Assembly: GCA_964016885.1 (NCBI GenBank)
Contig: OZ024759.1
Span: forward strand, 26,970,001 to 27,034,000
Reading direction: 5' to 3'
From: Eledone cirrhosa
Lineage: Eukaryota
DNA length: 64,000 nt
Shown here: one piece after another, positions 11,361 to 50,606 of the stretch
How positions within the stretch are numbered: the first letter of the stretch is position 1
Layout of the letters: every line of letters starts with the position of its first letter
The notes under the pieces: model-generated
What the model saw: the letters and a program-made list of their open reading frames with translations, nothing else
Told to the model about the DNA's origin: nothing
Databases searched by the model: none
Program-made: the position numbers and the translations under genes

Positions 11361-14300
11361 ATGAAACTCTGTCATGTAATGTTATCGACATATCTGCCCT
11401 TGGGGCTAATAATTGTCATGTAATGTTATGGACATCTCTGCCCCTGTGGCTAATAATTCTGTCATGTAATGTTATGGACATCTCTGCCCCTGTGGCTAAT
11501 AATTCTGTCATGTAATGTTATGGACATCTCTGCCCCTGTGGTTAATAATTCTGAGAGAGATAAAACAAGTGAGGGATTAGAGTGTTGAAACAAGAGAGAG
11601 AGAGGAAGAGAGAGAGAGAGCGAGATGAAATGAGACAGGGAGAGCGAGATGAAACGCGAGAGTGAGAGAAGCGATATGAAACGAGAGAGTGAGAGCGAGA
11701 TGAAACGAGAGAGAGAGAGAGCGAGATGAAACGAGACAGAGAGAGCGAGATGTAATGAGAGAGAGAGAGAGAGAGCGGGATGGAACGAGACAGAGAGGAA
11801 ACGAGAGAGAGAGGAAACGAGAGTAGAGAGCGAGATGAAACAGGAGAGAGAGAGCGAGATGAAACGAGAGGGAGAGAGAGATGAAACGAGGGAGATAGAG
11901 ATGAAACGAGAGAGAGGAAGAGAGAGATGGAACGAGAGAGAGGAAGACAGAGATGAAACGAGAGAGAGAGAGAGATGAAACGAGAGAGAGAGAGCGCGAG
12001 ATGAAACGAGAGAGAGAGAGCGCGAGATGAAACGACAGAGAGAGAGAGAGATGAAAGGAGGGAGATAGAGATGAAACGAGAGAGAGGAAGAGAGAGATGG
12101 AACGAGCGAGAGGAAGAGAGAGATGGAACGAGAGAGAGGAAGACAGAGATGAAACGAGAGAGAGCGAGATGAAACGAGAGAGAGAGAGAGCGAGATGAAA
12201 CGAGAGAGAGGAAGAGAGAGAGCGCCAGATGAAACTCTGTCATGTAATGTTATGGACATATCTGCCCTTGGGGCTAATAATTGTCATGTAATGTTATGGA
12301 CATCTCTGCCCCTGTGGCTAATAATTCTGTCATGTAATGTTATGGACATCTCGGCCCCTGTGGCTAATAATTCTGACATGTAATGTTATGGACATCTCTG
12401 CCCCTGTGGCTAATAATTCTGACATGTAATGTTATGGACATCTCTGCCCCTGTGGCTAATAATTCTGTCATGTAATGTTATGGACATCTCTGCCCCTGTG
12501 GCTAATAATTCTGCCATGTAATGTTATGGACATCTCTGCCCCTGTGGCTAATAATTCTGCCATGTAATGTTATGGACATCTCTGCCCCTGTGGCTAATAA
12601 TTCTGACATGTAATGTTATGGACATCTCTGCCCTGTGGCTAATAATTCTGACATGTAATGTTATGGACATCTCTGCCCCTGTGGCTAATAATTCTGAGAG
12701 AGATGAAACAAGTGAGGGATTAGAGAGAGATAAAACAAGTGAGGGATTAGAGTGTTGAAACAAGAGAGAGAGAGGAAGAGAGAGAGAGAGCGAGATGAAA
12801 TGAGACAGGGAGAGCGAGATGAAACACGAGAGTGAGAGAAGCGAGATGAAACGAGAGAGTGAGAGCGAGATGAAACGAGAGAGAGAGAGAGCGAGATGAA
12901 ACGAGACAGAGAGAGCGAGATGTAATGAGAGAGAGAGAGAGCGGGATGGAACGAGACAGAGAGGAAACGAGAGAGAGGAAACGAGAGTAGAGAGCGAGAT
13001 GAAACGAGAGGGAGAGAGAGATGAAACGAGAGAGAGCAAGAGAGAGATGGAACGAGAGAGAGGAAGACAGAGATGAAACGAGAGAGAGAGAGAGCGAGAT
13101 GAAACTCTGTCATGTAATGTTATGGACATATCTGCCCTTGGGGCTAATAATTGTCATGTAATGTTATGGACATCTCTGCCCCTGTGGCTAATAATTCTGT
13201 CATGTAATGTTATGGACATCTCTGCCCCTGTGGCTAATAATTTTGTCATGTAATGTTATGGACATCTCTGCCCCTGTGGCTAATAATTCTGACATGTAAT
13301 GTTATGGACATCTCTGCCCTGTGGCTAATAATTCTGACATGTAATGTTATGGACATCTCTGCCCCTGTGGCTAATAATTCTAAGAGAGATGAAACAAGTG
13401 AGGGATTAGAGAGAGATAAAAAAGTGAGGGATTAGAGTGTTGAAACAAGAGAGAGAGAGGAAGAGAGAGAGAGAGAGCGAGATGAAATGAGACAGGGAGA
13501 GCGAGATGAAACGAGACAGAGAGGAAACGAGAGAGAGGAGACGAGAGTAGAGAGCGAGATGAAACAGAAGAGAGAGAGCGAGATGAAACGAGAGGGAGAG
13601 AGAGATGAAACGAGTGAGCGAGAGAGAGATGAAACGAGAGAGATAGAGATGAAACGAGAGAGAGGAAGAGAGAGATGGAACGAGAGAGAGGAAGAGAGAG
13701 AGGAAGACAGAGATGAAACGAGAGAGAGAGCGAGATGAAATGAGAGAGAGAGAGCGCGAGATGAAACGAGAGAGAGAGAGAGCGCGAGATGAAACGACAG
13801 AGAGAGAGACAGATGAAAGGAGGGAGATAAAGATGAAACGAGAGAGAGGAAGAGAGAGATGGAACGAGAGAGAGGAAGAGAGAGAGGAAGACAGAGATGA
13901 AACGAGAGAGAGAGAGAGCGAGAGGAAACGAGAGAGAGAGAGCGCAAGATGAAACGAGAGAGAGAGAGCGCGAGATGAAACTCTGTCATGTAATGTTATT
14001 GACATATCTGCCTCTGTGGCTAATAATTGTCATGTAATGTTATGGTCATCTCTGCCCCTGTGGCTAATAATTCTGTCATGTAATGTTATGGACATCTCTG
14101 CCCCTGTGGTTAATAATTCTGACATGTAATGTTATGGTCATCTCTGCGCCTGTGGCTAATAATTCTGAGAGAGATGAAACAAGTGAGGGATTAGAGTGTT
14201 GAAACAAGAGAGAGAGAGCGAGATGAAATGAGAGAGTGTGAGCGAGATGAAACGAGACAGGGAGAGCGAGATGAAACGAGAGAGTGAGAGCGAGATGAAA

Positions 14301-17300
14301 CGAGAGAGTGAGAGCGAGATGAAACGAGAGAGAGAGAGCGAGATGAAATGAGAGAGAGAGAGCGAGATGAAATGAGAGAGAGAGAGCGAGATGAAACGAG
14401 ACAGAGAGAGAACGAGATGAAACGAGAGAGTGAGAGCGAGATGAAACGAGAGAGAGAGAGCGAGATGAAACGGGAGGGAGAGAGAGATGAAACGAGAGAG
14501 AGTGGAAACGAGAGTAGAGAGCGAGATGAAACAGGAGAGAGAGAGAGCGAGATGAAACAGGAGAGAGAGAGCGAGATGAAACGAGAGGGAGAGAGAGATG
14601 AAACGAGAGAGCGAGAGAGAGATGAAACGAGAGAGAGGAAGAGAGAGATGGAACGAGAGAGAGGAAGATAGAGATGGAACGAGAGAGAGGAAGACAGAGA
14701 TGAAACGAGAGAGAGAGAGAGCGAGATGAAACAGGAGAGAGAGAGCGAGATGAAACGAGAGGGAGAGAGAGATGAAACGAGAGAGCGAGAGAGAGATGAA
14801 ACAAGGGAGATAGAGATGAAACGAGAGAGAGGAAGAGAGAGATGGAACGAGAGAGAGGAAGAGAGAGATGGAACGAGAGAGAGGAAGACAGAGATGAAAC
14901 GAGAGAGCGAGATGAAACGAGAGAGAGAGAGAGCGAGAAGAAACGAGAGAGAGGAAGAGAGAGAGCGCCAGATGAAACTCTGTCATGTAATGTTATGGAC
15001 ATATCTGCCCTTGGGGCTAATAATTGTCATGTAATGTTATGGACATCTCTGCCCCTGTGGCTAATAATTCTGAGAGAGATGAAACAAGTGAGGGATTAGA
15101 GAGAGATAAAACAAGTGAGGGATTAGAGTGTTAAAACAAGAGAGAGAGAGAGCGAGATGAAACGCGATAGTGAGAGAAGCGAGATGAAACGAGAGAGTGA
15201 GAGCGAGATGAAACGAGAGAGAGAGAGAGCGAGATGAAACGAGACAGAGAGAGCGAGATGTAATGAGAGAGAGAGCGAGCGGGATGGAACGAGACAGAGA
15301 GGAAACGAGAGTAGAGAGCGAGATGAAACGAGAGGGAGAGAGAGATGAAACGAGAGAGCGAGAGAGAGATGAAACCAGGGAGATAGAGATGAAATGAGAG
15401 AGAGGAAGAGAGAGATGGAACGAGAGAGAGGAAGACAGAGATGAAACGAGAGAGAGAGAGAGCGAGATGAAACGAGACAGAGAGAGCGCGAGATGAAACG
15501 AGAGAGAGAGAGCACGAGATGAAACGACAGAGAGAGAGACAGATGAAAGGAGGGAGATAGAGATAAAACGAGAGAGAGGATGAGAGAGATGGAACGAGAG
15601 AGAGGAAGAGAGAGATGGAACGAGAGAGAGGAAGACAGAGATGAAACGAGAGAGAGAGAGAGCAAGATGAAACGAGAGAGAGAGAGCGCGAGATGAAACT
15701 CTATCATGTAATGTTATTGATATATCTGCCCCTGTGGCTAATAATTGTCATGTAATGTTATGGTCATCTCTGCCCCTGTGGCTAATAATTCTGTCATGTA
15801 ATGTTATGGACGTCTCCGCCCCTGTGGCTAATAACTCTGACATGTAATGTTATGGACATCTCTGCCCTGTGGCTAATAATTCTGACATGTAATGTTATGG
15901 ACATCTCTGCCCCTGTGGCTAATAATTCTGAGAGAGATGAAACAAGTGAGGGATTAGAGAGAGATAAAACAAGTGAGGGATTAGAGTGTTGAAACAGGAG
16001 AGAGAGAGCGAGATGAAACGCGATAGTGAGAGAGGCGAGATGAAACGAGAGAGTGAGAGCGAGATGAAACGGGACAGAGAGAGCGAGATGTAATGAGAGA
16101 GAGAGAGAGCGGGATGGAACGAGACAGAGAGGAAACGAGAGTAGAGAGCGAGATGAAACGAGAGGGAGAGAGAGATGAAACGAGAGAGCGAGAGAGAGAT
16201 GAAACGAGGGAGATAGAGATGAAACGAGAGAGAGGAAGAGAGAGATGGAACGAGAGAGAGGAAGACAGAGATGAAACGAGAGAGAGAGAGAGCGAGATGA
16301 AACGAGAGAGAGAGAGCGCAAGATGAAACGAGAGAGAGAGAGCGCGAGATGAAACGACAGAGAGAGAGACAGATGAAAGGAGGGAGATAGAGATGAAACG
16401 AGAGAGAGGAAGAGAGAGATGGAACGAGAGAGAGGAAGACAGAGATGAAACGAGAGAGAGAGCGAGATGAAACGAGAGAGAGGAAGAGAGAGAGCGCGAG
16501 ATGAAACTCTCTCATGTAATGTTATCGACATATCTGCCCTTGGGGCTAATAATTGTCATGTAATGTTATGGACATCTCTGCCCCTATGGCTAATAATTCT
16601 GTCATGTAATGTTATGGACATCTCTGCCCCTGTGGCTAATAATTCTGTCATGTAATGTTATGGACATCTCTGCCCCTGTGGCTAATAATTCTGACATGTA
16701 ATGTTATGGACATCTCTGCCCCTGTGGCTAATAATTCTGCCATGTAATGTTATGGACATCTCTGCCCTGTGGCTAATAATTCTGACATGTAATGTTATGG
16801 ACATCTCTGCCCCTGTGGCGAATAATTCTGAGAGAGATGAACCAAGTGAGGGATTAGAGAGAGATAAAACAAGTGAGGGATTAGAGTGTTGAAACAAGAG
16901 AGAGAGAGGAAGGGAGAGAGAGAGCGAGATGAAACAAGAGAGTGAGAGAAGCGAGATGAAACGAGAGAGTGAGAGCGAGATCAAACGAGAAAGAGAGACA
17001 GCGAGATGAAACGAGACAGAGAGGAAACGAGAGAGAGAGGAAATGAGAGAGAGGAAACGAGAGTAGAGAGCGAGATGAAACAGGAGAGAGAGAGCGAGAA
17101 GAAACGAGCGGGAGAGAGAGATGAAACGAGAGAGCGAGAGAGAGATGAAACGAGGGAGATAGAGATGAAACGAGAGAGAGGAAGAGAGAGATGGAACGAG
17201 AGAGAGGAAGACAGAGATGAAACGAGAGAGAGAGAGAGCGAGATAAAACGAGACAGAGAGAGCGCGAGATGAAACGAGAGAGAGAGAGCGCGAGATGAAA

Positions 17301-18880
17301 CGACAGAGAGAGAGACAGATGAAAGGAGGGAGATAGAGATGAAACGAGAGAGAGGATGAGAGAGATGGAACGAGAGAGAGGAAGAGAGAGATGGAACGAG
17401 AGAGAGGAAGACAGAGATGAAACGAGAGAGAGAGCAGGATGAAACGAGAGAGAGAGAGCGCAAGATGAAACGAGAGAGAGAGAGCGCGAGATGAAACTCT
17501 GTCATGTAATGTTATTGACATATCTGTCCCTGTGGCTAATAATTGTCATGTAATGTTATGGTCATCTCTGCCCCTGTGGCTAATAATTCTGTCATGTAAT
17601 GTTATGGACATCTCTGCCCTTGTGGCTAATAATTCTGAGATATATTAAACAAGTGAGGGATTAGAGTGTTGAAACAAGAGAGAGAGAGCGAGAAGAAATG
17701 AGAGAGTGAGAGCGGGATGAAATGAGAGAGAGAGAGCGAGATGAAACGGGAGGGAGAGAGAGATGAAAAGAGAGAGGAAACGAGAGTAGAGAGCGAGATG
17801 AAACAAGAGAGAGAGAGAGCGAGATGAAACAGGAGAGAGAGAGCGAGATGAAACGAGAGGGAGAGAGAGATGAAACGAGAGAGCGAGAGAGAGATGAAAC
17901 AAGGGAGATAGAGATGAAACGAGAGAGAGGAAGAGAGAGATGGAACGAGAGAGAGGAAGAGAGAGATGGCACGAGAGAGAGGAAGACAGAGATGAAACGA
18001 GAGAGAGAGAGCGAGATGAAACGAGAGAGAGAGAGCGCGACATGAAACGAGAGAGAGAGAGCGCTAGATGAAACGACAGAGAGCGAGACAGATGAAAGAA
18101 GGGAGATAGAGATGAAACGAGAGAGAGGAAGAGAGAGATGGAACGAGAGACAGGAAGACAGAGATGAAACGAGAGAGAGAGAGAGCAAGATGAAACGAGA
18201 GAGAGAGAGAGCGCAAGATGAAACGAGAGAGAGGAAGAGAGAGATGGAACGAGAGAGAGGAAGAGAGAGATGGCACGAGAGAGAGGAAGACAGAGATGAA
18301 ACGAGAGAGAGAGAGCGAGATGAAACGAGAGAGAGAGAGCGCAAGATGAAACGAGAGAGAGAGAGCGCGAGATGAAACGACAGAGAGAGAGACAGATGAA
18401 AGAACGGAGATAGAGATGAAACGAGAGAGAGGAAGAAAGAGATGGAACGAGAGAGAGGAAGAGAGAGATGGAACGAGAGAGAGGAAGACAGAGATGAAAC
18501 GAGAGAGAGAGAGAGCGAGATGAAACGAGAGAGAGGAAGACAGAGATGAATCGAGAGAGAGGGAGAGCGAGATGAAACGAGAGAGAGAGCGCGCAAGATG
18601 AAACTCTGTCATGTAATGTTATTGACATATCTGCCCCTGTGGCTAATAATTGTCATGTAATGTTATGGTCATCTCTGCCCCTGTGGCTAATAATTCTGTC
18701 ATGTAATGTTATGGACATCTCTGCCCCTGTGGCTAATAATTCTGACATGTAATGTTATGGACATCTCTGCCCTTGTGGCTAATAAATCTGACATGTAATG
18801 TTATGGAAATCTCTGCCCCTGTGGCTAATAATTCTGTCATGTAATGTTATGGAAATCTCTGCCCCTATGGCTAATAAATC
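11361..18880 (+). repeat. Composite satellite, left arm: 46-bp arrays alternating with 8 GA-rich blocks
   Basis: Unit tgtcatgtaatgttatggacatctctgcccctgtggctaataattc (46 bp, ~2-10 per array), then linker gatgaaacaagtgagggattagag, then 0.4-1 kb of gagatgaaac(ga)n variants. Confidence 0.96.
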
Positions 18881-18881
18881 A

Positions 18882-21800
18882 GAATTATTAGCCACAGGGG
18901 CAGAGATGTCCATAACATTACATGTCAGAATTATTAGCCACAGGGGCAGAGATGTCCATAACATTACATGACAGATTTATTAGCCACAGGGGCAGAGATG
19001 TCGATAACATTACATGTCAGATTTATTAGCCACAGGGGCAGAGATGTCCATAACATTACATGTCAAAATTATTAGCCACAGGGGCAGAGATGTCCATAAC
19101 ATTACATGACAGATTTATTAGCCACAGGGGCAGAGATGTCCATAACATTACATGACAGAATTATTAGCCACAGGGGCAGAGATGTCCATAACATTACATG
19201 ACAGAATTATTAGCCACAGGGGCAGAGATTTCCATAACATTACATGACAATTATTAGCCCCAAGGGCAGATATGTCCATAACATTACATGACAGACTTTC
19301 ATCTCGCGCTCTCTCTCTCTCGTTTCATCTCACGCTCTCTCTCTTCCTCTCTCTCGTTTCATCTCGCGTTCTCTCTCTTCCTCTCTCTCGTTTCATCTCG
19401 CTCTCTCTCTCGTTTCATCTCTGTCTTCCTCTCTCTCGTTCCATCTCTCTCTTCCTCTCTCTCGTTCCATCTCTCTCTTCCTCTCTCTCGTTTCATCTCT
19501 CTCTCTCTCGTGTCATCTCTATCTCCCTCGTTTCATCTGTCTCTCTCTCTGTCGTTTCATCTCCCTCTATCTCTCTCTCGCTCTCTCGTTTCATCTCTCT
19601 CTCCCTCTCGTTTCATCTCGCTCTCTCTCTCCTGTTTCATCTCGCTCTCTCTCTCCTGTTTCATCTCGCTCTCTACTCTCGTTTCCTCTCTCTCGTATCC
19701 TCTCTCTCGTTTCCTCTCTCTCTCGTTTCCTCTCTCTCTCGTTTCCTCTAGCTCTCACTCTCTCGTTTCATCTCGCTCTCTCTCTCTCATTTCATCTCGC
19801 TCTCTCTCTCTCGTTTCATCTCGCTCTAACCTGTCTCGTTTCATTTCGCTCTCTCTCTCTCTCGTTTCATTTCGCTCTCTCTGTCTCATTTCATCTCGCT
19901 CTCTCTCTCTCATTTCAACTCGCTCTCTCTCTCTCATTTCATCTCGCTCTCTCTCTCTCGTTTCATATCGCTCTCACTCTCTCATTTCATCTCGCTCTCT
20001 CTCTCTCGTTTGATCTCGCTCTCACTCTCTCTTCCTCTCTCTCTCTTGTTTCAACACTCTAATCCCTCACTTGTTTCATCTCTCTCTTATCCCTCACTTG
20101 TTTCATCTCTCTCAGAATTATTAGCCACAGGGGCAGAGATATCCATAACATTACATGTCAGAATTATTAGCCACAGGGGCAGAGATGTCCATAACATTAC
20201 ATGACAGATTTATTAGCCACAGGGGCGGAGATGTCCATAACATTACATGACGAATTTATTAGCCACAGGGGCAGAGATCTCCATAACATTACATGACAGA
20301 ATTATTAGCCACAGGGGCAGAGATGTCCATAACATTACATGACAGAATTATTTGCCACAGGGGCAGAGATGTACATAACATTACATGACAATTATTAGCC
20401 CCAAGGGCAGATATGTCCATAACATTACATGACAATTATTAGCCCCAAGGGCAGATATGTCCATAACATTACATGACAGACTTTCATCTCGCGCTCTCTC
20501 TCTTCCTCTCTCTCGTTTCATCTCGCTCTCTCTCTCTCGTTTCATCTCGCTCTCTCTCTCTCTCGTTTCATCTCGCGCTCTCTCTCTTCCTCTCTCTCGT
20601 TTCATCTCGCTCTCTCTCTCGTTTCATATCTGTCTTCCTCTCTCTCGTTCCATCTCTCTATTCCTCTCTCTCTCGTTTCATCTAGCTATCACTCTCCCGT
20701 TTCATCTCCCTCTATCTCTCTCTCGCTCTCTCGTTTCATCTCTCCCTCCCTCTCATTTCATCTCGCTCTCTCTCTCCGGTTTCATCTCGCTCTCTCTCTC
20801 TCCTGTTTCATCTTGCTCTCTACTCTCGTTTCCTCTCTCTCGTTTCCTCTCTCTCGTTTCCTCTATCTCTCGTTTCCTCTCTCTCTCGTTTCATCTAGCT
20901 CTCACTCTCTCGTTTCATCTCGCTCTCTCTGACTCGTTCCATCTCGCTCTCACTCTCTCGTTTCATCTCGCTCTCTCTCTCTCATTTCATCTCGCTCTCT
21001 CTCTCTCATTTCATCTCGATCTCTCTGTCTCGTTTCATCCCGCTCTCTCTGTCTCGTTTCATCTCGCTCTCTCTCTCTCATTTCATCTCGCTCTCTCTCT
21101 CTCATTTCATCTCGCTCTCTCTCTCTCTCTCGTTTCATCTCACTCTCAATCTCTCATTTCATCTCGCTCTCTCTCTCTCATTTCATCTCGCGCTCTCTCT
21201 CTTCCTCTCTCTCGTTTCATCTCGCGCTCTCTCTCTTCCTCTCTCTCGTTTCATCTCGCTCTCTCTCTCTCGTTTCATCTTGCGCTCTCTCTCTTCCTCT
21301 CTCTCGTTTCATCTCGCGCTCTCTCTCTTCCTCTCTCTCGTTTCATCTTGCTCTCTCCCTCTCTCTTTTCATCTCGCGTTCTCTCTCTTCCTCTCTCTCG
21401 TTTCATCTCTGTCTTCCTCTCTCTCGTTCCATCTCTCTCTTCCTCTCTCTCGTTCCATCTCTCTCTTCCTCTCTCTCGTTTCATCTCTCTCTCTCGTTTC
21501 ATCTCTATCTCCCTCGTTTCATCTGTCTCTCTCTCTGTCGTTTCATCTCCCTCTATCTCTCTCTCGCTCTCTCGTTTCATCTCTCTCTCCCTCTTGTTTC
21601 ATCTCGCTCTCTCTCTCCTGTTTCATCTCGCTCTCTCTCTCCTGTTTCATCTCGCTCTCTACTCTCGTTTCCTCTCTCTCGTATCCTCTCTCTCGTTTCC
21701 TCTCTCTCTCGTTTCCTCTCTCTCTCGTTTCCTCTAGCTCTCACTCTCTCGTTTCATCTCGCTCTCTCTCTCTCATTTCATCTCGCTCTCTCTCTCTCGT

Positions 21801-24800
21801 TTCATCTCGCTCTAATCTGTCTCGTTTCATTTCGCTCTCTCTCTCTCTCGTTTCATTTCGCTCTCTCTGTCTCGTTTCATCTCGCTCTCTCTCTCTCATT
21901 TCAACTCGCTCTCACTCTCTCATTTCATCTCGCTCTCTCTCTCTCGTTTGATCTCGCTCTCACTCTCTCTTCCTCTCTCTCTCTTGTTTCAACACTCTAA
22001 TCCCTCACTTGTTTCATCTCTCTCTTATCCCTCACTTGTTTCATCTCTCTCAGAATTATTAGCCACAGGGGCAGAGATATCCATAACATTACATGTCAGA
22101 ATTATTAGCCACAGGGGCACAGATGTCCATAACATTACATGACAGATTTATTAGCCACAGGGGCGGAGATGTCCATAACATTACATGACGAATTTATTAG
22201 CCACAGGGGCAGAGATGTCCATAACATTACATGACAGAATTATTAGCCACAGGGGCAGAGATGTCCATAACATTACATGACAGAATTATTTGCCACAGGG
22301 GCAGAGATGTACATAACATTACATGACAATTATTAGCCCCAAGGGCAGATATGTCCATAACATTACATGACAATTATTAGCCCCAAGGGCAGATATGTCC
22401 ATAACATTACATGACAGACTTTCATCTCGCGCTCTCTCTCTTCCTCTCTCTCGTTTCATCTCGCTCTCTCTCTCTCGTTTCATCTCGCTCTCTCTCTCTC
22501 TCGTTTCATCTCGCGCTCTCTCTCTTCCTCTCTCTCGTTTCATCTCGCTCTCTCTCTCTCTCGTTTCATATCTCTCTTCCTCTCTCTCGTTCCATCTCTC
22601 TATTCCTCTCTCTCTCGTTTCATCTAGCTATCACTCTCTCGTTTCATCTCCCTCTATCTCTCTCTCGCTCTCACGTTTCATCTCTCCCTCCCTCTCATTT
22701 CATCTCGCTCTCTCTCTCCGGTTTCATCTCGCTCTCTCTCTCTCCTGTTTCATCTTGCTCTCTACTCTCGTTTCCTCTCTCTCGTTTCCTCTCTCTCGTT
22801 TCCTCTCTCTCTCATTTCCTCTCTCTCTCGTTTCATCTAGCTCTCACTCTCTCGTTTCATCTCGCTCTCTCTGACTCGTTCCATCTCGCTCTCACTCTCT
22901 CGTTTCATCTCGCTCTCTCTCTCTCTCATTTCATCTCGCTCTCTCTCTCTCATTTCATCTCGATCTCTCTGTCTCGTTTCATCCCGCTCTCTCTGTCTCG
23001 TTTCATCTCGCTCTCTCTCTCTCATTTCATCTCGCTCTCTCTCTCTCATTTCATCTCGCTCTCTCTCTCTCTCTCGTTTCATCTCACTCTCAATCTCTCA
23101 TTTCATCTCGCTCTCTCTCTCTCATTTCATCTCGCGCTCTCTCTCTTCCTCTCTCTCGTTTCATCTCGCGCTCTCTCTCTTCCTCTCTCTCGTTTCATCT
23201 CGCTCTCTCTCTCTCGTTTCATCTTGCGCTCTCTCTCTTCCTCTCTCTCGTTTCATCTCGCTCTCTCTCTCTCATTTCATCTCGATCTCTCTGTCTCGTT
23301 TCATCCCGCTCTCTCTGTCTCGTTTCATCTCGCTCTCTCTCTCTCATTTCATCTCGCTCTCTCTCTCTCATTTCATCTCGCGCTCTCTCTCTTCCTCTCT
23401 CTCGTTTCATCTCGCGCTCTCTCTCTTCCTCTCTCTCGTTTCATCTCGCTCTCTCTCTCTCTCTCGTTTCATCTTGCGCTCTCTCTCTTCCTCTCTCTCG
23501 TTTCATCTCGATCTCTCTCTGTCTCGTTTCATCTCTGTCTTCCTCTCGCTCGTTCCATCTCTCTCTTCCTCTCTCTCGTTCCATCTCTCTCTTCCTCTCT
23601 CTCGTTTCATCTCTCTCTCTCGTTTCATCTCTGGCTTCCTCTCTCTCGTTCCATCTCCCTCTTCCTCTCTCTCGTTCCATCTCTCTCTTCCTCTCTCTCG
23701 TTTCATCTCTCTCTCTCGTTTCATCTCTATCTCCCGCGTTTCATCTGTCTCTCTCTCTGTCGTTTCATCTCCCTCTATCTCTCTCTCGCTCTCTCGTTTC
23801 ATCTCTCTCTCCCTCTCGTTTCATCTCGCTCTCTCTCTCCTGTTTCATCTCGCTCTCTCTCTCCTGTTTCATCTCGCTCTCTACTCTCGTTTCCTCTCTC
23901 TCGTTTCGTCTCTCTCGTTTCCTCTCTCTCTCGTTTCATCTAGCTCTCCCACTCTCGTTTCATCTCGCTCTCTCTGTCTCGTTCCATCTCGCTCTCACTC
24001 TCTCGTTTCATCTCGCTCTCTCTCTCTCATTTCATCTCGCTCTCTCTCTCTCATTTCATCTCGCTCTCTCTCTCTCGTTTCATCTCGCTCTCTCTGTCTC
24101 GTTTCATCTCGCTCTCGCTCTCTCTGTCTCGTTTCATCCCGCTCTCTCTCTCTCATTTCATCTCGCTCTCTCTCTCTCATTTCATCTCGCTCTCTCTCTC
24201 TCTCTCGTTTCATCTCGCTCTCACTCTCTCATTTCATCTCGCTCTCTCTCGTTTGATTTCGCTCTCACTCTCTCTTCCTCTCTCTCTCTTGTTTCAACAC
24301 TCTAATCCCTCACTTGTTTCATCTCTCTCAGAATTATTAGCCACAGGGGCAGAGATGTCCATAACATTACATGTCAGAATTATTAGCCACAGGGGCAGAG
24401 ATGTCCATAACATTACATGACAGATTTATTAGCCACAGGGGCAGAGATGTCCATAACATTACATGACGAATTTATTAGCCACAGGGTCAGAGATGTCCAT
24501 AACATTACATGTCAGAATTATTAGCTACAGGGGCAGAGATGTCCATAACATTACATGTCAGAATTATTAGCCACAGGGGCAGAGATGTCCATAACATTAC
24601 ATGACAGATTTATTAGCCACAGGGGCAGAGATGTCCGTAACATTAAATGACAGATTTATTAGCCACAGGGGCAGAGATTCCATAACATTACATGTCAGAA
24701 TTATTAGCCACAGGGGCAGAGATTTCCATAACATTACATGACAGAATTATTAGCCACAGGGGCAGAGATGTCCATAACATTACATGACAGAATTATTAGC

Positions 24801-26100
24801 CACAGGGGCAGAGATGTCCATAACATTACATGACAATTATTAGCCCCAGGGGCAGATATGTCCATGACAGAGTTTCATCTCTCGCTCTCTCTCTTCCTCT
24901 CTCTCGTTTCATCTCGCTCTCTCTCTCGTTTCATCTCGCTCTCTCTCTCTCTCGTTTCACCTCTGTCTTCTTCTCTCTCGTTTCATCTCTCTCTTCCTCT
25001 CTCTCGTTCTATCTCTCTCTTCCTCTCTCTCGTTTCATCTCTCTCTCTCGTTTCATCTCTATATCCCTCGTTTCATCTGTCTCTCTCTCTGTCGTTTCAT
25101 TTCCCTCTATCTCTCTCTCGCTCTCTCGTTTCATCTCTCTCTCCCTCTCGTTTCATCTCGCTCTCTCTCTCCTGTTTCATCTCGCTCTCTCTCTCCTGTT
25201 TCATCTCGCTCTCTACTCACGTTTCCTCTCTCTCGTTTCCTCTCTTTCTCGTTTCATCTCTCTCTCGTTTCATCTCTCTATGTCTCATTTCATCTCGCTC
25301 TCTCTCTCTCTCATTTCATCTCGTTCTCTCTCTCTCTCATTTCATCTCGCTCTCACTCTCTCGTTTCATCTCGCTCTCTCACTCTCGTTTCATCTCGCAC
25401 TCTCTCTCTCGTTTCATCTCTCTCTCTCTCTCTCTCTCATTTCATCTCGCTCTCTGTCTCGTGTCATCTCGCTCTCTCTGTCTCTCGTTTCATCTCGCTC
25501 TCACTCTCTCGTTTCATCTCACTCTAACTCTCTCATTTCATCTCGCTCTCCCTGTCTCGTTTCATCTCGCTCCCACTCTCTCATTTCATCTCACTCTCTT
25601 TCTCTCATTTCATCTCGCTCTCTCGCTCTTGTTTCAACACTCTAATCCCTCACTTGTTTCATCTCTCTCTAATCCCTCACTTGTTTCATCTCTCTCTTGT
25701 TTCAATTCTTTCTCTCTCTCTCTCTCACTCTCTCTCTCTCTCTCTCTCTCTTTCTATCCCCTCTCTCTTTCTCTCCCCTCTCTCTGTTGTTTCATCCCTC
25801 ACCCTCTTGTTTCATCCCCTTCTCTCCCTCTCTCTCTCTTCCCCTCTATCTCTATTCCTCTCTCTCATCCCCTCTCTCTCTCTTCCTCTCTCTCTCTTCC
25901 TGTCTCCCCTCACCCTCTTGTTTCAACTCTCTCCTCGTTTCAACTCTCTCCTCGTTTCAACTCTCTCCTCGTTTCAACTCTCTCCTCGTTTCAACTCTCT
26001 CTCTCTCCTCTCGTTTCAACTCTCTCTCTCTCCTCGTGTTTCAACCATCTCCTCTCTTGTTTCAACTCTCTCACCTCTCGTTTCAACTCTCTCTCTCTGT
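18882..26100 (-). repeat. Composite satellite, right (inverted) arm with 4 CT-rich blocks
   Basis: Reverse complement of the same 46-mer, linker and (ct)n gtttcatctc blocks; orientation flips at 18881. Confidence 0.96.
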
Positions 26101-27025
26101 GTCTCCAATGTGTATACCGATATATATACCGAAGAATGTACATAAACACACATGCATACACGCATGTGTATATATATATACATACATGTGTCTCTCTCTC
26201 TCCCTATATATATGTACATATGTGTAAATATGTACATACATATTAGTGTATATATATTGCTATCTATATGCATATTTGTATTAATTATACTGTATGGTGA
26301 ATTGGCAGTATCGGTAGAGGGTCTGACGCCATGCTTTCCAGCATAGTTACGTCCCTTTACGATCCGAGGTCAACTTTGCCTTTCATCCTTACGGGGTCGA
26401 TAAAATAAAGTACCAGTAATGTACTGGTTAATTACTGACCTTGTGCCTAAAATAGAAACAATTATTAGTTCAAAGAGAAACCACCATCATAGAGAAACCA
26501 CCGTCCTACCTGAAATATTATGTTATCATATTAAATATTTCTTATACTGTCATGTTTTTTCTTTAAAACGATTGCATTTCAATAAAGTGAAGAAAACTAT
26601 TATATACTGTTGTTATATCATTATACTTTAGTTTTAACTTATTATTTCTATGTGTATAAATATAATGTATGTAAGTGTGTTTGAAAATATATAATAATAA
26701 TATGCATGTTTGAAGCAGGGTTCAACTGAAATATCTACACCGGTAACTTAATTAGTGTTACACCTTAGGCATAAACTATTTGGCATTCTTTGAAGGAGGT
26801 ACTAGGTTTTTCACTGTCTTAAATGGAGTATACACGCGCACACAATGCATATATATAAATTGTTTTTCTCTGTACAAAGAGATTGACATCATTTCTTAAA
26901 TCATTATTTAGGGTTTTACAACAAAACATATTGTATGTGTAATTATACAAATTGAATTTAAGTATTTATTTTAAAATTTTACATACACTTTAGTAGTATA
27001 TATATATATATATATATATTCATTT

Positions 27026-27917
27026 GTGATGCCATGCATTGTATTGTACACTTCGACATATGAATTACGTTCATGCAACACTTCTCTTATCATAGGCATT
27101 TTTTGTGGTGAGCAGTCATTATTTGTTGGTACTAGGGCAGTGGATTGGCAGTATCGGTAGAGCGCCAGACACCATGCTTTACAGCATAGGGTTATGGCCA
27201 TTTACGTTCTGGGTTCAAATCCCTCCAAGGTTGACTTGGTTTTCATCCTTATGAGGTCGATAGAATAAAGTACCAGTAATTGCTGGCCTTGTGCCAGAAA
27301 CAATTATTTGGTTGTACTTCCAATCTGTGCTACACACCTTCGTTCCCATCAATAATATATAACTGGCCATATTGTGGTGTATTTTCTGCAGGTTACAGAG
27401 ATGGGGGTGTAGTGATATGTTTGACCCTGAATATGAAAGCTATACGGGCCTCTGCCGGGTGGTAACACCAAATGAAGTGAAATAAATGTAGTTTTAATTG
27501 CAGATGTTTCTGTGAAATCAACTGCTTCCTGGCCTCTTTCAAAGAGATTTCTCAGTCTCTCAGGGTATATTTGCAATGGTGGCAACACAACCTTTCCTTT
27601 ATTACAACAGTTACAATTTTCATTTCTAAATTTCAAAGCTCCACAGTGATCACACGAAACATTCATATCACTAATATGAAATTCTTCTACATTTCCATTA
27701 ATATTAATTGTTGGCCAATTTCTCTTACAACGCTCATTATCCATTCTTCTCTGTCTGAATGTTTTCCATTCTGTTGTTTATTATGTAATTAAATAGCTCT
27801 GTACAATACATAGAGCATTCTTCTTTTCTTTACCTTTTCTATGGAAATACAAGAACAAACATGTAAATATATATATATATGTATATACATAAACAAGACT
27901 GTTATTGCTCCAACCAG
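27026..27917 (-). mobile_element. Helitron N-terminal fragment (U2)
   Basis: ORF remnant 27349-27744 with the same motifs as 1255-1692. Confidence 0.88.
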
Positions 27918-34857: not shown

Positions 34858-35004
34858 AACAGTGATAGATATTCTGTCTAAAGGAGGGGCGTGCAACAGG
34901 CGGCCCGCGGGCCACAATCGAGCCCACCTGACCAGTCAGAGTGGCCCGCAATGACTCTTGTAGGCTTATTTAGAATTTTTTCCATACCCGTAATACTTCT
35001 GTTA

Positions 35005-35481: not shown

Positions 35482-36053
35482 GAAACAAACTACCTGCATC
35501 AGTTATTATACTTTTATAACACCGCTATATTACCTACATGAAAGAGGTAAATATTTATTTCTCTTGTCTTCTTAAATGTATAGAACATTTTTCTTATATA
35601 TATTCTTAACATAGCTAGGACCGTTTATTATTTACTAGTCTCTACTCCTAGGACTTTGCTGGTCTCATGTCCCCTCCATCAACACACACTCGGTAGAAAG
35701 CTGGTCGTCGGATGTAAAGTGGCCCTGATTACAGGTCTAGTATTGAAGCCTTTCGGCTTGAGCCTTGCTGATGCCGACACAGTTCCTGTGGTAGTTTTGG
35801 TAGCACAGGTGACATTTTATTGTGTTTAGGTACCGGCTAGTGCGGACACAGAGAGCACAACCAGGTGGTGAGCTGGCAACGACCAAGTGTAGAGGGCCAG
35901 CTTTGAAATTCGAGCGACGGAGTGAACTAGTAAAAGAGGCAGGGTAAGCAGCATTGGTTCTAACGGTGGGACTAGAACGGAGGTTGGGTGGTGCTGGGGG
36001 TGGGCTAACAGCTAACAGTTGTAGGAGTGGTGGGGGTTTGCTAGGATTAATTT

Positions 36054-37652
36054 TTACATCTGTCTGTGAACTCTTGAAAAAGCAACATACAATTGTCCAG
36101 GGTTAAATACTTGCTCAGGGAGGAACAGACCCACTTTATCATGTATTTGACCATGGTTCTTGTTGATTGTCATGGCATATGACAGTCTTAATGGAAACTG
36201 GGGTCTTTCCAAAGTAAAAGGGATGTTGGCACCACTGGGGGATAACTTCAGTCTTGGGATCAAAACACACCTGCCCATGAAAGGACCATAGATATGAGAA
36301 GCTTTGATAAAATGTTTATGCAGTTCTACTACTTCTAATCTTGTGCCATTACATAATCTGTTCTGGATTGAAATATTCCATAGAAGCATTATTATTGATC
36401 CTGCTTATAATTGGAGTTTGTGAGGCGGCATCCCAGAAGGTGTAAGCAAGTTCATTTAGCTTGAACCAGGCAGCAAGGGTCCCTGCATTTCTACCACAAC
36501 CTGAGCATTGCCTCTTTGAAAGTAAACTCTGTTTGTTCTCCAGGTGTGTGGCTAGGCTGTATACTGTATGTGATGTACCATGAAGCTTAAATTCCGAGAG
36601 ACACGACACTGCTTCTGGCTGAGACACATACCTGCAACAAAGATAGGTTCTTATTTCATCATGGTTGTGTTGGTTCTGAGCCTCATTAGGTAATGCATTA
36701 TTCGTTACTTCTATAGATGTACAATCATGCCCCATGTAACATATTTAAAGAGGTACTTGACACTTTTTACAGAAGCGCAAACTTCAACATTAATATGTGC
36801 ACAATATTTCTTAAGCAAAAAGGCATTAAATGGCATAACATTCCTGTCATCTACTGAATGTCATCCAATTTACACTGCAGTTCCTGTCTTGCACCTCCTG
36901 TACTCTGGGTATCCATTTAGGTTCAATAATGTTTCCCTTCTGTAGGTTTTTGGATAGTTCTTTTTGAAAAATCCATTTTGTATAAATGGGGGAAAAGGGT
37001 TTCCAGAACCACATGGCCTGTGGATCATAAACTTTTAAACCTGCTCATGTAGTACTGGATCATCTTCCAATGCAGGTATTTCTGCTGACACGATTCTGTC
37101 AATGTCTTCTCTGTTTCTTATCTTGTCTTCATTTTTTAAGGCTCAGTGTTATCATCTGTTTAGATAATTCATTAAACCATTATACTCATCCACTCACAAT
37201 TGGGCTTGATTGTTCCTCAAATATTGAAGCCTGCATCCCTCTACTTTCATATAGGCATCCACTAAATACTGCTAAAATAATTTACCTGCCCTATATATCG
37301 CACTAAATCCTCCTCTATATGCTATACAGTATATGTAATACTCCTGCATTGTCAGTCTATTGCAAACACAGGTCCTACATTCCTCTCCATGGCACTATGC
37401 CACCAAAATTCACCATTATCGGTCGGTCATGAGGTCCAAGTGGCATGAATTATGTGGTATTTTCTGAGGAGGATGGTCTTTAGGAAAGATGATAATATCT
37501 CTTTGTACAGGTGGTGTGCCCTCAATCCCCCACAAAACAACAGCTATCATTACTAGTTGGTAAATTAGAGCAGCTCATATCTGATCCTCTTCTAAATCTT
37601 AATTCACAGTTCTGTACACGACAATTTTCTCTTCTTGCACTTTGCTGTTTGA
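36054..37652 (-). mobile_element. Helitron Rep/helicase portion in U2, interrupted at 37652
   Basis: Paralogue of 8820-10418 (ORF remnants 36054-36389, 36349-36735). Homology stops at ctgtttga (37652) and resumes at 40204. Confidence 0.92.
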
Positions 37653-37670
37653 GATGAAACAAGATAGCAA

Positions 37671-39268
37671 TGTCCATAACATTACATGTCAGAATTATTA
37701 GCCACAGGGGCAGAGATGTCCATAACATTACATGTCAGAATTATTAGCCACCGGGGCAGAGATGTCCATAACATTACATGTCAGAATTATTAGCCACAGG
37801 GGCAGAGATGTCCATAACATTACATGACAGAATTATTAGCCACAGGGGCAGAGATGACCATAACATTACATGACAGATTTATTAGCCACAGGTGCAGAGA
37901 TGACCATAACATTACATGACAGAATTATTAACCACAGGGGCAGAGATGACCATAACATTACATGACAATTATTAGCCCCAGGGGCAGATATGTCCATAAC
38001 ATTACATGACAGAGTTTCATCTCGCGCTCTCTCTCTCTCGTTTCATCTCGCTCTCTCTCTCTCTCGTTTCATCTCTGTCTTCCTCTCTCTCATTTCATCT
38101 CTGTCTTCCTCTCTCTCGTTCCATCTCTCTCTTCCTCTCTCTCGTTCCATCTCTCTCTTCCTCTCTCTCGTTTCATCACTCTCTCTCGTTTCATCTCTAT
38201 TTCTCTCTCTCGTTTCATCTGTCTCTCTCTCTGTCGTTTCATCTCCCTCTATCTCTCTCTCGCTCTCTCATTTCATCTCTCTCTCCCTCTCGTTTCATCT
38301 CGCTCTCTCTCTCCTGTTTCATCTCGCTCTCTCTCTCCTGTTTCATCTCGCTCTCTAGTCTCGTTTCCTCTCTCTCTCATTTCATCTCGCTCTCTCTCTC
38401 TCATTTCATCTCGCTCTCACTCTCTCTCATTTCATCTCGCTCTCTCTCTCTCATTTCATCTCGCTCTCACTCTCTCATTTCATCTCGCTCTCACTCTCTC
38501 TCATTTCATCTCGCTCTCTCTCTCTCTCTCGTTTCATCTCGCTCTCTCTCTCTCATTTCATGTCGCTCTCACTCTCTCTCATTTCATCTCGCACTCACTC
38601 TCTCATTTCATCTCGCTCTCTCTCTCTCTCGTTTCATCTCGCTCTCTCTGTCTCATTTCATCTCGCTCTCTCTCTCTCTCTCTCTCGTTTCATCTCGCTC
38701 TCTCTCTCTCTCATTTCATCTCACTCTCTCTCTCTCTCGTTTCATCTCGCTCTCACTCTCTCATTTCATCTCGCTCTCTCTCTCTCGTTCCATCTTGCTC
38801 TCTCTCTCTCTTCCTCTCTCTCTTGTTTCAACACTCTAATCCCTCACTTGTTTCATCTCTCTCTAATCCCTCACTTGTTTCATCCCTCACCCTCTTGTTT
38901 CATCCCCCTCTCCCTCTTCCTCTCTCTCTCTTCCTCTCTCTCTCTTCCTCTCTCTCTCTCTTTCTCTCTCTCTCTTCCTCTCTCTCTCTCTTCCTCTCTC
39001 TCTCTCTCTTCCTCTCTCTCTCTCTTTCACACTCTATCTCCGACTCGTTTCATCACTCTCTCCCCTCTCTCCCCTCACCCTCTTGTTTCAACTCTCTCTT
39101 CGTTTCAACTCTCTCTCCTCTCGTTTCAACTCTCTCTCTCTCTCTCTCCTCTCGTTACAACTCTCTCTCTCTCTCCTCTCGTTTCAACTCTCTCTCTCTT
39201 TTCTCGTTTCAACTCTCTCCTCTCTTGTTTCAACTCTCTCACCTCTCGTTTCAACTCTTTCTCTCTGT
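37671..39268 (-). repeat. Single composite satellite module (46-bp array + CT-rich block)
   Basis: About 7-8 inverted 46-mers (37671-38010) followed by a CT block ending like 25640-26100. Confidence 0.95.
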
Positions 39269-40203
39269 GTCTCCAATGTGTAATAAACCGTGACTCATAT
39301 ATATATACCGAAGTATGTACATAAACACATACATACACGCATGTGTATATATATATATACATACATGTGTCTCTCTCTCTCTCCCTATATATATGTATAT
39401 ATGTATAAATATGTACATACATATTAGTGTATATATATTGCTATCTATATGCATATTTGTATAATTATACTGTATGGTGAATTGGCAGTATCGGTAGAGG
39501 GTCTGACGCCATGCTTTCCAGCATAGTTACGTCCCTTTACGATCCGAGGTTAACTTTGCCTTTCATCCTTAAGGGGTCGATAAAATAAAGTACCAGTAAT
39601 GTACTGGTTAATTGCTGGCCTTGTGCCTAAAGTAGAAACAATTATTAGTTCAAAGTGAAACCACCATCCTACCTGAAATATTATGTTATCATATTAAATA
39701 TTTCTTATACTGTCATGTTTTTTCTTTAAAACGATTGCATCTCAATAAAGTGAAGAAAACTATTATATACTGTTGTTATATCATTATACTTTAGTTTTAA
39801 CATTTCTATGTGTATAAATATAATGTATGTAAGTGTGTTTGAAAATATATAATAATAATATGCATGTTTGAAGCAGGGTTCAACTGAAATATCTATACCA
39901 GTAACTTAATTAGTGTTACACCTTAGGCATAAACTATTTGGCATTCTTTGAAGGAGGTACTAGGTTTTTCGCTTTCTTAAATGGAGTATACACGCGCACA
40001 CGATGCATATATATAAATTGTTTTTCTCTGTACAAAGAGATTGACATCATTTCTTAAATCATTATTTAGGGTTTTACAACAAAACATATTGTATGTGTAA
40101 TTATACAAATTGAATTTAAGTATTTATTTTAAAATTTTACATACACTTTAGTAGTATCATCATCATCATCATCATCATTTTACGTCCGCTTTTCCCTCAT
40201 TTG

Positions 40204-41067
40204 TGATGCCATGCATTGTATTGTACACTTCGACATATGGATTATATTCATGCAACACCTCTCATATCATAGCCATTTTTTGTGGTGAGCAGTCATTATT
40301 TGTTGGGACTAGGGCAGTGGATTGGCAGTATCGGTAGAGCGTCAGACACCATGCTTTGCAGCATAGGGTTATGGCCCTTTACGTTCTGGGTTCAAATCCC
40401 TCTAAGGTTGACTTTGTTTTCATCCTTATGAGGTCGATAGAATAAAGTACCAGTAATTGCTGGCCTTGTGCCAGACAAAATTATTTGGTTGTACTTCCAA
40501 TCTGTGCTACACACCTTCGTTCCCATCAATAATATATAACTGGCCATATTGTGGTGTATTTTCTGCAGGTTACAGAGATGGGTGTGTATTGATATGTTTG
40601 ACCCTGAATATGAAATCTATACGGGCCTCTGCCGGGTGGTAACACCAAATGAAGTGAAATAAATGTAGTTTTAATTGCAGATGTTTCTGTGAAATCAACT
40701 GCTTCCTGGCCTCTTTCAAAGAGATTTCTCAGTCTCTCAGGGTATATTTGCAATGGTGGCAACACTACCTTTCCTTTATTACAACAGTTACAATTTTCAT
40801 TTCTAAATTTCAAAGCTCCACAGTGATCACACGAAACATTCATATCACTAATATGAAATTCTTCTACATTTCCATTAATATTAATTGTTGGCCAATTTCT
40901 CTTACGACGCTCATTATCCATTCTTCTCTGTCTGAATGTTTTCCATTCTAAGTCTATTTGCATGGAATAATTATATTCTGTTGTTTATTATGTAATTAAA
41001 TAGCTCTGTACAATACATAGAGCATTCTTCTTTTCTTTACCTTTTCTATGGAAATACAAGAACAAAC

Positions 41068-41105
<38 letters not shown>

Positions 41106-41141
41106 ATATACATAAACAAGACTGTTATTGCTCCAACCAGT
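40204..41141 (-). mobile_element. Helitron N-terminal fragment (U1'); continues the frame broken at 37652
   Basis: ORF remnant 40526-40963 identical to 1255-1692. Confidence 0.88.
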
Positions 41142-43642
41142 CTATTTACCTTTGATAACTATCCTAAATATAAATACACCTATACCATACATACACATAT
41201 CATATATGTTTTTGATGCCGTGGTATAGCAGAGATAAGCAAGAAGAGAAAAGAAAATGAAAATGAGAAAAAAAAAGAAGTAAGAAGTCGGGGGAGGGACA
41301 GACACTTCACTCCTGTCGTCTTTCCTCCCGACTTTATGGAGGAAATCAGCAGTACAGGGACCAAGTATGGCAGAGGTCTCAATGGAGTGGAAGAGGTGAG
41401 TCAGGCCTTGGTACTATCTTACTATCCTTTGCATTGCGGGGTGTGGAGCCTAGGTTTGTGGCTGTAGCTATATTTGAACTTTTATATGAAATTTCAGTTT
41501 TATATTTTTCACATCTTAAAACTTAATCTTAGTCTTTTGCAGCTCATCTTGTTTCATCTCGCAGCACACGATTTGGGAACCACTGCTCTAGAGTTAGAAA
41601 AAGTATATTTTATGCAGGGCTTCCCTGAGGCATAAAAACTATTTCAAGAGATCGACATGGGTAGAAAGGTTGAGAAATGCTGCACAATGTTCTTTGGTTT
41701 TTGTTCACCTTTAAATAATCATGTATAAAATATCGGGTGTGCAAGATTTCATGAAAAGGTATAACATTATTTATGCTGATCTTGCAGGAACTAGCTCCAA
41801 TTGAGAGTTGTACCAATTCCCACTAAACTCGAAACTCCTGGACAATATATACATATCTTTATAAGTTCCTGTGTATTGTGTCGTTGTATAATGAAACATA
41901 AATATATACCATGCATGTCAGTCAGATTTGAACTCACTATATTTGGCGTTTTATAGATATAATTTGTTTGTTAAAACAATTGATTAAATAATAACTAAAT
42001 AAAATTAATTCTACAATCCTGGATAGGGAATGAACTTATAACTTCATAATAGAAGCCATCTATTCGAGCAGTATTGCCATCTAAGCCACCAGGTTACTTA
42101 CAGAACTTCATTCAAATATAAAATATAAAATATATGCCAGACATAGTGAGTTCGAATCTGACTGATTAGTTGGTCATTGTCCCAGCCAACAGTTTAAATC
42201 GCCAACCAGTAGGTTACATCGACTAGGTTGGGAAAACTTGGTTAAGTAGCTCCAGTTATTGCTACGTTAGACATATTCAAGACTTATCGACACCGAATGG
42301 AAGAAAGGTAAAGTTGAACTCAGAGTAAAGAACTGGAAAAATACTGCAAAGAATTCTATCTGATGTTCTAACAATTCTACCAAATTACCTTATGTATATA
42401 TATTTATATCTAGAGATAAGAAGAAAACTGAAAGAAAGAAAAAAAAATGAGACCTTATATGTAACCCATGACCGGGATTGAAACCGAAACCAGGACTACC
42501 ACCATCTCTGGTATCACCCACCAGACCACCATGAAAGATACAAAAATCTGCTTTTTTAATATTTATAAGCCTACTTTCAATATTAAAGTAATTAACATGT
42601 GGTGTTGTTCATGCCTTTCTCTATGTTATTGATAAAAAATAAAGTATTTAAACCTCAAATTTTGTTATTCAAATATGCTTGCTTATGTAATTATAAATGT
42701 CGCAGAATACACACACATATATAGATGTGAAAATATTCAGGACCCCAACGGCTGTGCTACTGCCGTTTCGACATCTATATATATATCTTTTAGTCCTAGG
42801 CTCTTTCAGCGCAGAAAGAATTCTCCAATGATCACAACCAGCTAATGGTGCCCAGTGGAAGCACTTTAGTCTAATTATAACCCCAACGATCACGATTGGC
42901 GGCGGCTTTTTCGAGTCTGAGGTTGACTGCCAGATATATATATATATATTTTTATACTTTGCTAGAATCCCGGAGAACAACAGAAAGATGCTGAGTTCAG
43001 AGTTTAAAAAACATGTCCCCTTTAATATAAAAACAATCCGAGTCTTGTAAAAGTGTTATTACTGTAATATAAAGTAGAAACCCTTTATTTAAACAAAGCT
43101 GCGATGCAGCGATCATCAAAGCAAACCCCAAAATGTAAACAAACTTCTCGCAGGTGCTGCCAGATACACGATAACATGTGTATACGAAGTGTAACAGGGA
43201 GTTGGGTCGTATTATATGACTTTCAAATTGACCCCTATTATATTCAAATTATCCCCTGTGGGGCGTGCACCCCACGTTGAGAATCCCTCATAAATAAATA
43301 TATGTGAGTGTGTTGCTATGACTGCTATTTCTAGCAGGTTTACTGCAGTCCTGTAGACGCACAACAAAAACCGGAAGTGGCAGCCATTAAAAAACTTTGG
43401 CTTAAAATCAGCCAAAAGATTTTCAATAATAGTAAAATTTTATTTTTGACAAGGACGATAACTTTTGTCTTACTTAATCGCAAAAATCGAGGCAAAAATT
43501 TTGAGGGTGTGCAGTTTACACGCTAAAAATAAACCTGCTAGAAATAGCAGTCATAGCAACTCACTTACATATATTTATATATCATATATATATATATATA
43601 TATATATGGACACTTTAGAAATAGCAGCGAATAACAGAAAGG

Positions 43643-43739
<97 letters not shown>

Positions 43740-46741: not shown

Positions 46742-46888
46742 AACAGTGATAGATATTCTGTCTAAAGGAGGGGCGTACAACAGGCGGCCCGCGGGCCACA
46801 GTCGAGCCCACCTGACCAGTCAGAGTGGCCCGCAATGACTCTTGTAGGCTTATTTAGAATTTTTTCCATACCCGTAATACTTCTGTTA

Positions 46889-50555: not shown

Positions 50556-50606
<51 letters not shown>

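Follow-up and report, generated by a model that had tools for sequence, protein, structure and literature searches.

A decayed Helitron Rep/helicase frame in Eledone cirrhosa DNA is split at one exact spot by a 2.55-kb insert (positions 37653–40203 of the window, by which we mean the whole 64,000-nucleotide stretch that was analysed), and the insertion at this site is confirmed as genuine. The insert is best read, with a probability that we put at roughly 55%, as one filler-type insertion made in the course of break repair, which would have been followed by tandem amplification while its satellite module multiplied and folded back. A preliminary description of the locus had proposed a mobile carrier of the HINE/DINE-1 or Helitron kind. 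This proposal is not borne out, as the terminal features that define such elements were not found, one end is variable and the sequencing depth in four runs shows no hint of further, dispersed copies.

At the insertion site, the sequence ctgtttga stops at 37652 and tgatgccatgc restarts at 40204. The uninterrupted form is present twice (Table 1), with the two halves adjacent and overlapping in TGA at join points 10416 and 49699. Translated on the minus strand, the open frame across this empty site reads YNTMHGIKQQSARRE, in agreement with the preliminary description, whose coordinates for the insert and for the empty site are likewise exact. A tblastn search with the intact relative P0001 places residues 148–340 on the right flank and residues 341–385 on the left flank from 37650, splitting the frame between residues 340 and 341. 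Helitron Rep/Pif1 homology is present to the left and to the right of the insertion site, both in protein searches and by tblastn. A piece of the left flank is matched by 1301 proteins at E <= 0.001, the best being P0001 (1530 aa, 79% identical), and Octopus bimaculoides proteins match the frame at 63–64%. The Helitron copy is dead, carrying stops and frameshifts, and P0001 residues 513–632 and 868–1366 are absent from both copies of the left flank. Pfam matched two of seven frames, with Pif1_2B (E 4.4e-13) on the sister copy at 48103–48504; the N-terminal ORF alone gave no match among two candidates in the protein search, and P0001 residues 290–420, used as query, matched only P0001 among 34 candidates.

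In the window, all three right junctions and the one left junction lie at one site. Since every filled copy is interrupted at the identical site, one event is recorded rather than repeated targeting. The single precise site that had been claimed is supported by the junctions, the tblastn split and the empty-site translation. The further right junctions reported earlier stand in part: the one at 933 is present, but it is the 40204 junction repeated in a 39.27-kb unit and not an independent case, and the one near 27026 has the same breakpoint (27027) but only the last 7 bp in common, the preceding 40 bp being different.

Within the insert, a 46-mer array of 7.5 copies, a CT block, a TA/CA tract, a SINE and an AT-rich tail follow each other in the order described before, and the left end, given earlier as 18 bp, measures 17 bp. 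The last 47 bp at the right end vary between copies, with the exception of the final 7 bp; the (CAT)n piece and its ~20 bp (40157–40196) we take to be a likely later short retro-insertion. In the lineage that ends at 27026, the flank is 2.3% and the tail 2.1% diverged. An Rfam scan over 35000–47000 returned 55 matches, nearly all on microsatellites, of which none reached the gathering score. Matches of the R/E-rich Helitron N-terminus to the CT block (25–30% identity, tblastn with composition correction off) were rejected as a low-complexity artefact, because units of 24–26 and 46 bp keep no reading frame. Among the papers listed in a literature search, none describes this satellite or locus. 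Helitrons and abundant SINEs are reported for Octopus vulgaris in a part of PMC13282606 that does not include this locus.

Table 1. Coordinates of the insert, its insertion site and related features in the window.
Feature	Position	Strand	Basis or remark
Left flank, decayed Helitron Rep/Pif1 remains	36060..37652	-	tblastn; P0001 residues 341–512, 633–867 and 1367–1498, intervening blocks missing
Left TGA copy, 3-bp overlap	37650..37652	+	target duplication or microhomology, which sequence cannot distinguish
Left end, 17 bp	37653..37669	+	inverted-motif match; likely templated junction filler
46-bp tandem array, 7.5 copies, including a 44-bp variant unit	37670..38013	+	repeat analysis
CT-rich block, 24–26-bp units; two 27-mers at ~38818–38888	38014..39266	+	
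TA/CA low-complexity tract	39267..39468	+	
SINE-like high-copy repeat	39476..39646	+	~73% identical to one inside the Helitron frame, 40317–40472
AT-rich tail, no terminal structure	39647..40156	+	
(CAT)n + ~20 bp	40157..40196	+	alignment; at the 40203 and 932 ends, (TA)n instead at 27026
Right end, 7 bp common to both lineages of the filled copy	40197..40203	+	alignment
Right flank, Helitron N-terminal remains	40204..40933	-	tblastn; P0001 residues 148–337; opens with the right TGA (plus strand)
Uninterrupted (empty) site	10411..10426, repeated 49694–49709	+	sequence, tblastn, homolog comparison
Second tail lineage, breakpoint 27027 likewise	26101..27029	+	2.1% diverged from the 39460–40160 tail
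Fold-back array, satellite modules as in the insert	11361..26100	.	turns at ~18878
15-bp motif identical to the insert left end, opposite orientation	41546..41560	-	~25 bp from a presumed hAT-like terminal sequence

The comparison with P0001 also bears on whether the filled or the empty state came first. The empty site is three codons shorter than P0001, with no equivalents of residues 338–340, and in tblastn the match of the right flank continues for three more codons inside the end of the insert, where TNE stands opposite EQE of P0001. Furthermore, the span from NPY to NxP, which was counted by hand in 57 homolog matches, measures 47 or 49 residues in 24 of the 29 that carry both anchor motifs, and ~44 here. 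These observations would fit a filled state from which a TGA–TGA deletion removed the insert together with about nine Helitron coding bases, in which case TGA would be the microhomology of the deletion, and what is counted here as the final bases of the insert would belong to the Helitron. Such an order appears rather improbable to us: only one of the three residues is identical, the gap fits equally well after KQQ, a tblastn search with P0124 puts a two-residue gap after KQQS, and slippage between EQ and EH codons would account for the gap. The flank of the empty copy is moreover the most diverged: its distance to either filled copy is 2.9%, as against 2.3% between the two filled ones, which is the pattern expected of an outgroup.

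Higher-order units of ~39.27 kb follow each other in tandem along the window, and 3–11359 and 39271–50646 are 99.7% identical. On the plus strand, the unit runs from a satellite block through the tail (~39270–40203), the right flank (from 40204) and TE-rich DNA to the left flank (35004–37652), and the two flanks are the remains of one minus-strand Helitron Rep/Pif1 gene. The satellite module of the insert is indeed built like those of the large palindrome, as had been noted: every array has a 44-bp variant unit near its end and passes into the CT block in an identical way, and the terminal fold-back module (24800–26110) can be aligned with the whole of the insert's module. The fold-back array meets Helitron DNA at 11357–11360 through a 4-bp CTGG overlap, which is seen in a neighbouring module variant. 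A transposase-cut end common to both Helitron/satellite junctions was considered as well and is weakened by this overlap. At 20113–22050, one module seems to be doubled in the first 39-kb unit and not in the second (anchors 20467 and 22405 against 59650 only), a difference that may represent ongoing copy change or an assembly difference.

Internal modules begin at a join between 27-mer and 46-mer that is missing from the insert's module, which fits expansion from a one-module state. In a module tree of 12 rows, two of the nine inner branches were well supported, four were open and the insert's module was not basal, although this tree left out a module near 24850 (missed by the anchor) and a shortened one at 11381 and cannot root the insert's module. 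The ancestral one-module state put forward earlier is accordingly favoured by the missing join and lacks a basal placement in the tree; we consider a one-module-first order plausible. The filled unit is unlikely to have been derived from the fold-back unit by deletion, because a second break at the identical codon would be required. The left flanks are 1.3% and the right flanks 2.9% apart (Fisher p 0.003), and this divergence therefore calls for exchange between copies under any model. By eye, no convincing Helitron 5′ or 3′ terminus was recognized in the unit, and the 13-kb unit may have originated as a rolling-circle concatemer.

Macrosatellites and similar higher-order tandem arrays can consist of DNA rich in TEs. 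The present array resembles them in its multi-kb unit of decayed TEs and microsatellites, which is repeated head to tail at >99% identity, and is distinguished from them by nested periods of 46 bp, ~1 kb, ~13 kb and 39 kb and by the 14.7-kb fold-back inside the unit.

To compare the ends of the insert with those of mobile elements, the features expected of Helitrons and of HINE/DINE-1 elements were taken from excerpts of two sources (PMC4067079; PMC7492417). As given there, canonical Helitrons have a 5′ TC, a 3′ CTRR and a 16–20-nt palindrome ~11 bp from the 3′ end, and insert at an A/T target (PMC4067079). The insert shares with canonical non-autonomous Helitrons, in the excerpted description, the 5′ TC, in the minus-strand reading only, and in that reading it may also occupy an A/T site without duplication (PMC4067079). 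This site corresponds to one of four equivalent placements, and a 3-bp duplication fits equally well. Such agreement, together with the unchanged target, is in keeping with a low-copy or old non-autonomous rolling-circle element, read on the minus strand, that jumped once into this Helitron copy and has a non-canonical or decayed 3′ end (for Helitrons, see the same excerpt of PMC4067079). However, where the canonical element described there has CTRR and a 16–20-nt hairpin (PMC4067079), the minus-strand 3′ end of the insert reads CATC and the plus-strand ends fit neither signal. The 16–20-nt 3′ palindrome is absent; the only structure lies within the 46-mer unit, where a 5-nt loop is closed by a 5-bp stem, and the folded end stretches (56–71 nt) reach -0.4 to -4.4 kcal/mol.

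HINE/DINE-1 elements, according to the excerpts, carry a subTIR pair of 11–15 bp located 2–4 nt from the 5′ end and 38–60 bp from the 3′ end, a short inverted repeat beside the 5′ subTIR, a stem-loop 8–35 bp from the 3′ end and a T-rich (TT) target, each end having two or more T (PMC4067079; PMC7492417). Oyster Cg_HINEs, in the portion of the report that describes them, combine a tandem array with microsatellites and are often inserted into other TEs (PMC7492417). The insert is like these Helentrons, including the oyster Cg_HINEs as excerpted, in being non-coding, in lying inside another TE and in its short array and microsatellite (PMC4067079; PMC7492417), a likeness that also favours the rolling-circle alternative; central tandem repeats and a microsatellite are common in HINE/DINE-1 elements and not diagnostic. 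Conversely, it differs from the elements of these excerpts in lacking a subTIR pair, a 3′ palindrome, T runs at both ends and any sign of dispersal, and its array is separated from one end by 17 bp and from the other by 2.2 kb (PMC4067079; PMC7492417). In four combinations of orientation and variant, no subTIR pair was found: the best candidate, in one of them, had 8 bp with one mismatch, the other three had none of at least 8 bp, and 118 of 150 shuffles reached at least 8 bp, equalling or beating the best candidate. The 5-bp stem at the left end of the insert uses flank bases and has no subTIR beside it. A HINE-type 3′ stem-loop was found neither at the 40203 end nor at 27026, where there is only a (TA)n tract, and nothing beyond the 5-bp stem of the array unit occurs on the minus strand. 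No placement has TT on both sides, and one lies between two T.

The junction bases themselves were set against random joins of the same DNA, which gave an overlap of at least 3 bp in 6.7% of 200,000 trials and the A–TC reading in 5.6% of 40,000; among the 2727 joins with an overlap of at least 3 bp, 451 allowed the A–TC reading. Both the 3-bp overlap and the A–TC reading are within chance expectation. The TGA overlap that had been described as a duplication, or alternatively as an A–TC insertion, is seen, but each of these readings is expected in ~6% of random joins. TIR transposons that make 3-bp duplications, such as CACTA and PIF/Harbinger, carry terminal inverted repeats, and no terminal inverted repeat was found at the insert ends in a comparison with these groups.

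Sequencing runs provide a view beyond the window. Seven of the eleven listed runs, from three studies, contain 39470–41060 or part of it, and four of them, all contigs, were examined. The ratio of the median depth of nine SINE-free tail bins to that of eight flank bins was 0.60, 0.23, 0.54 and 0.71, never exceeding the flank in any of the four; this contig depth is not copy number, dispersed relatives of the flank may lower the ratio and one run is possibly the window's own sample. A ratio of ~0.5–0.67 is predicted from the window itself, where two tails stand against three or four copies of the flank. The SINE bin, by comparison, was 7,620 to 308,585 times as deep as the tail median. In run X1, the tail is a single contig of flat depth 6.28 that resembles the 27026 lineage. 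The tail/flank depth argues against a high-copy carrier family and likewise weighs against the rolling-circle alternative. In runs X7 and X2, one of which stands under another organism label, several contigs (up to 16 in X7) share other letters at 39734, 39738 and 39753; parts of the tail therefore have diverged relatives, an observation that speaks for a rolling-circle element. Among the pieces listed for 39470–41060, none spans 40203/40204 and none has a loose end there, a result that is swamped by the SINE and uninformative either way. Metagenome contigs were scanned for 25 nt of the 46-mer and yielded no match, which counts weakly against a rolling-circle element, given that host DNA may be absent from such contigs; a metagenome scan with P0001 gave one weak locus from 456 candidate stretches. 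Taking ends, joins and depth together, we regard a single jump of a rolling-circle element as possible but doubtful.

Two further depth values concern the flank. In run X7, a difference-free flank contig has a depth of 1737, as against 5–12 for single records that have diverged, which hints that the array of this sample is very large, although depth is not copy number. In run X1, the flank contig is near baseline.

The left end of the insert carries an inverted motif. Reverse-complemented, positions 37651–37663 reproduce 13 bp of the 27-mer motif of the satellite itself (38847–38859), and 37651–37665 are the exact reverse complement of 15 bp in the right flank, at 41546–41560, ~1.3 kb from the break and 3.9 kb from the left end. 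This 15-bp match was noticed first and shuffle-tested afterwards, and 3 of 3000 shuffles of a 20-bp query reached 15 bp in a background of 7.2 kb. These matches account for most of the 17 bp at the left end, which probably arose as templated filler of the junction. A shorter inverted match of 10 bp, between the left end and 39437–39446, is the longest exact one against 39270–40230; it lies ~760 bp inside the right end and is likely due to chance.

The same motif can be given a different origin, in which the satellite part alone derives from an element, namely a truncated TIR-type element whose right motif grew into the CT block, the tail being passenger DNA. A 10-bp inverted motif, which is also present in a nearby miniature element that we take to be hAT-like, borders the 46-mer array on both sides (37651–37660 and 38015–38024), and the exact 15-bp match adjoins a terminal sequence at 41546–41585 that we take to be hAT-like. 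We hold this origin to be very improbable, as the insert ends have neither a terminal repeat nor an 8-bp duplication and the likeness to this miniature element, judged by eye, is confined to ~19 bp. The motif next to the hAT-like end also matches the CT satellite unit over ~12 bp.

Junction fillers that form inverted repeats with nearby sequence are treated as templated insertions in the excerpt of PMC2943611 that we used, where such repeats were scored within 20 bp of the junction. Like the synthesis-dependent microhomology-mediated end joining outlined there, the present locus shows a likely inverted-repeat junction filler and snap-back palindromes (PMC2943611). In contrast, the excerpt deals with short insertions within 20 bp of fly breaks, whereas the fragment here measures 2.5 kb and its candidate templates lie 1.2–1.3 kb away (PMC2943611); the distance of ~1.3 kb between the 15-bp template and the break, compared with the 20 bp scored there, counts against a templated filler. 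An inverted duplication is present at 43016–43607 and 44155–44739. A perfect 30-bp snap-back palindrome at 30420–30480 joins an 89-bp array to a shortened copy of the Helitron right flank, its left arm being the reverse complement of flank sequence. Together with the overlap at 11357–11360 and the fold-back at 18878, this palindrome and the inverted duplication (43016–44739) resemble scars of repair, by analogy.

From the observed site, ends and nested repeats we infer a repair step, a donor and an order of events as follows. A break in the dead Helitron would have been joined to a donor fragment consisting of one satellite module and ordinary intergenic DNA, through microhomology of a few bases and, on the left side, a short stretch of filler copied from a template. 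Tandem duplication of the ~13-kb locus would then have produced filled and empty copies that are now 2–3% apart. In one copy, the module may have multiplied, folded back at ~18878 and become joined to the empty copy via the 4-bp overlap, and the resulting 39.27-kb unit would have been amplified recently, its copies being 99.7% alike. A one-off insertion is preferred because there is a single site, the junction overlaps by 3 bp, the left end is an inverted motif, the right end is variable and terminal structures are lacking. The overlap is in line with the short homology that filler capture predicts between the broken acceptor ends and the flanks of the donor locus. It is opposed by the minus-strand 5′ TC and A/T site with no loss of target, by the diverged relatives of the tail in X7 and X2, and by the unequal divergence of the flanks, which demands later exchange between copies.

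Capture of filler within Helitrons is known from the Sfru_Hel1 exemplars, for which the excerpt consulted gives end junctions of 2–13 bp (PMC6544945). The present case is similar in that unrelated sequence lies internal to a Helitron, with a junction of 3 bp against 2–13 bp in that excerpt (PMC6544945). There, most pieces could be traced to their source loci, and elements enlarged in this way kept transposing, whereas here the donor is putative and the spread is local and tandem (comparison limited to the excerpt of PMC6544945).

If a one-off filler insertion is the correct reading, a satellite module entered a dead transposon and was amplified at four nested scales, which would provide a case study of satellite birth and amount to ordinary repeat evolution with no new mechanism. 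A more far-reaching version of the rolling-circle reading is that the insert is a true low-copy element of this type with a non-canonical 3′ end, in CATC, and neither hairpin nor subTIR, and that its single module seeded the 14.7-kb fold-back and the 39-kb macrosatellite. This seems unlikely to us; were it true, the locus would still show, next to each other, all stages between a carrier and a higher-order satellite. Should the same ends occur in unrelated flanks, a rolling-circle-like element that lacks the accepted terminal signals would be defined by them, and the series from carrier to satellite could be dated.

Several smaller features accompany the array. At 43016–45700, a repeat of 390–590 bp occurs three times, one of the copies being inverted, and a palindrome rich in GC lies close to one end; at 32868–33358 the repeat is reduced to a single copy. 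It looks closer to a HINE than the insert does, and it may indicate where the 13-kb subunits are joined. Just downstream of the Helitron frame, a 55-bp tandem array at 35004–35481 (also at 7605–8247 and 46888–47530; 8.9 against 11.9 copies) may go back to a Helitron 3′ region that was duplicated. The last Helitron codons are interrupted at 35640–36057 (also at 8400–8825) by ~430 bp with a PHD-finger-like frame, for which the Pfam E value of 0.03 is below the cut-off; the tblastn match of P0001 stops at residue 1498, and by eye the C-terminus resumes beyond this ~430-bp piece. One subunit per 39-kb repeat contains an 89-bp tandem array of 12 copies (29358–30423), whose AT-rich unit has internal inverted repeats. 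Finally, a 100-bp stretch bordered by a short direct repeat is present in two subunits (28096–28195 and 31049–31148) and missing from the third (near 2040).
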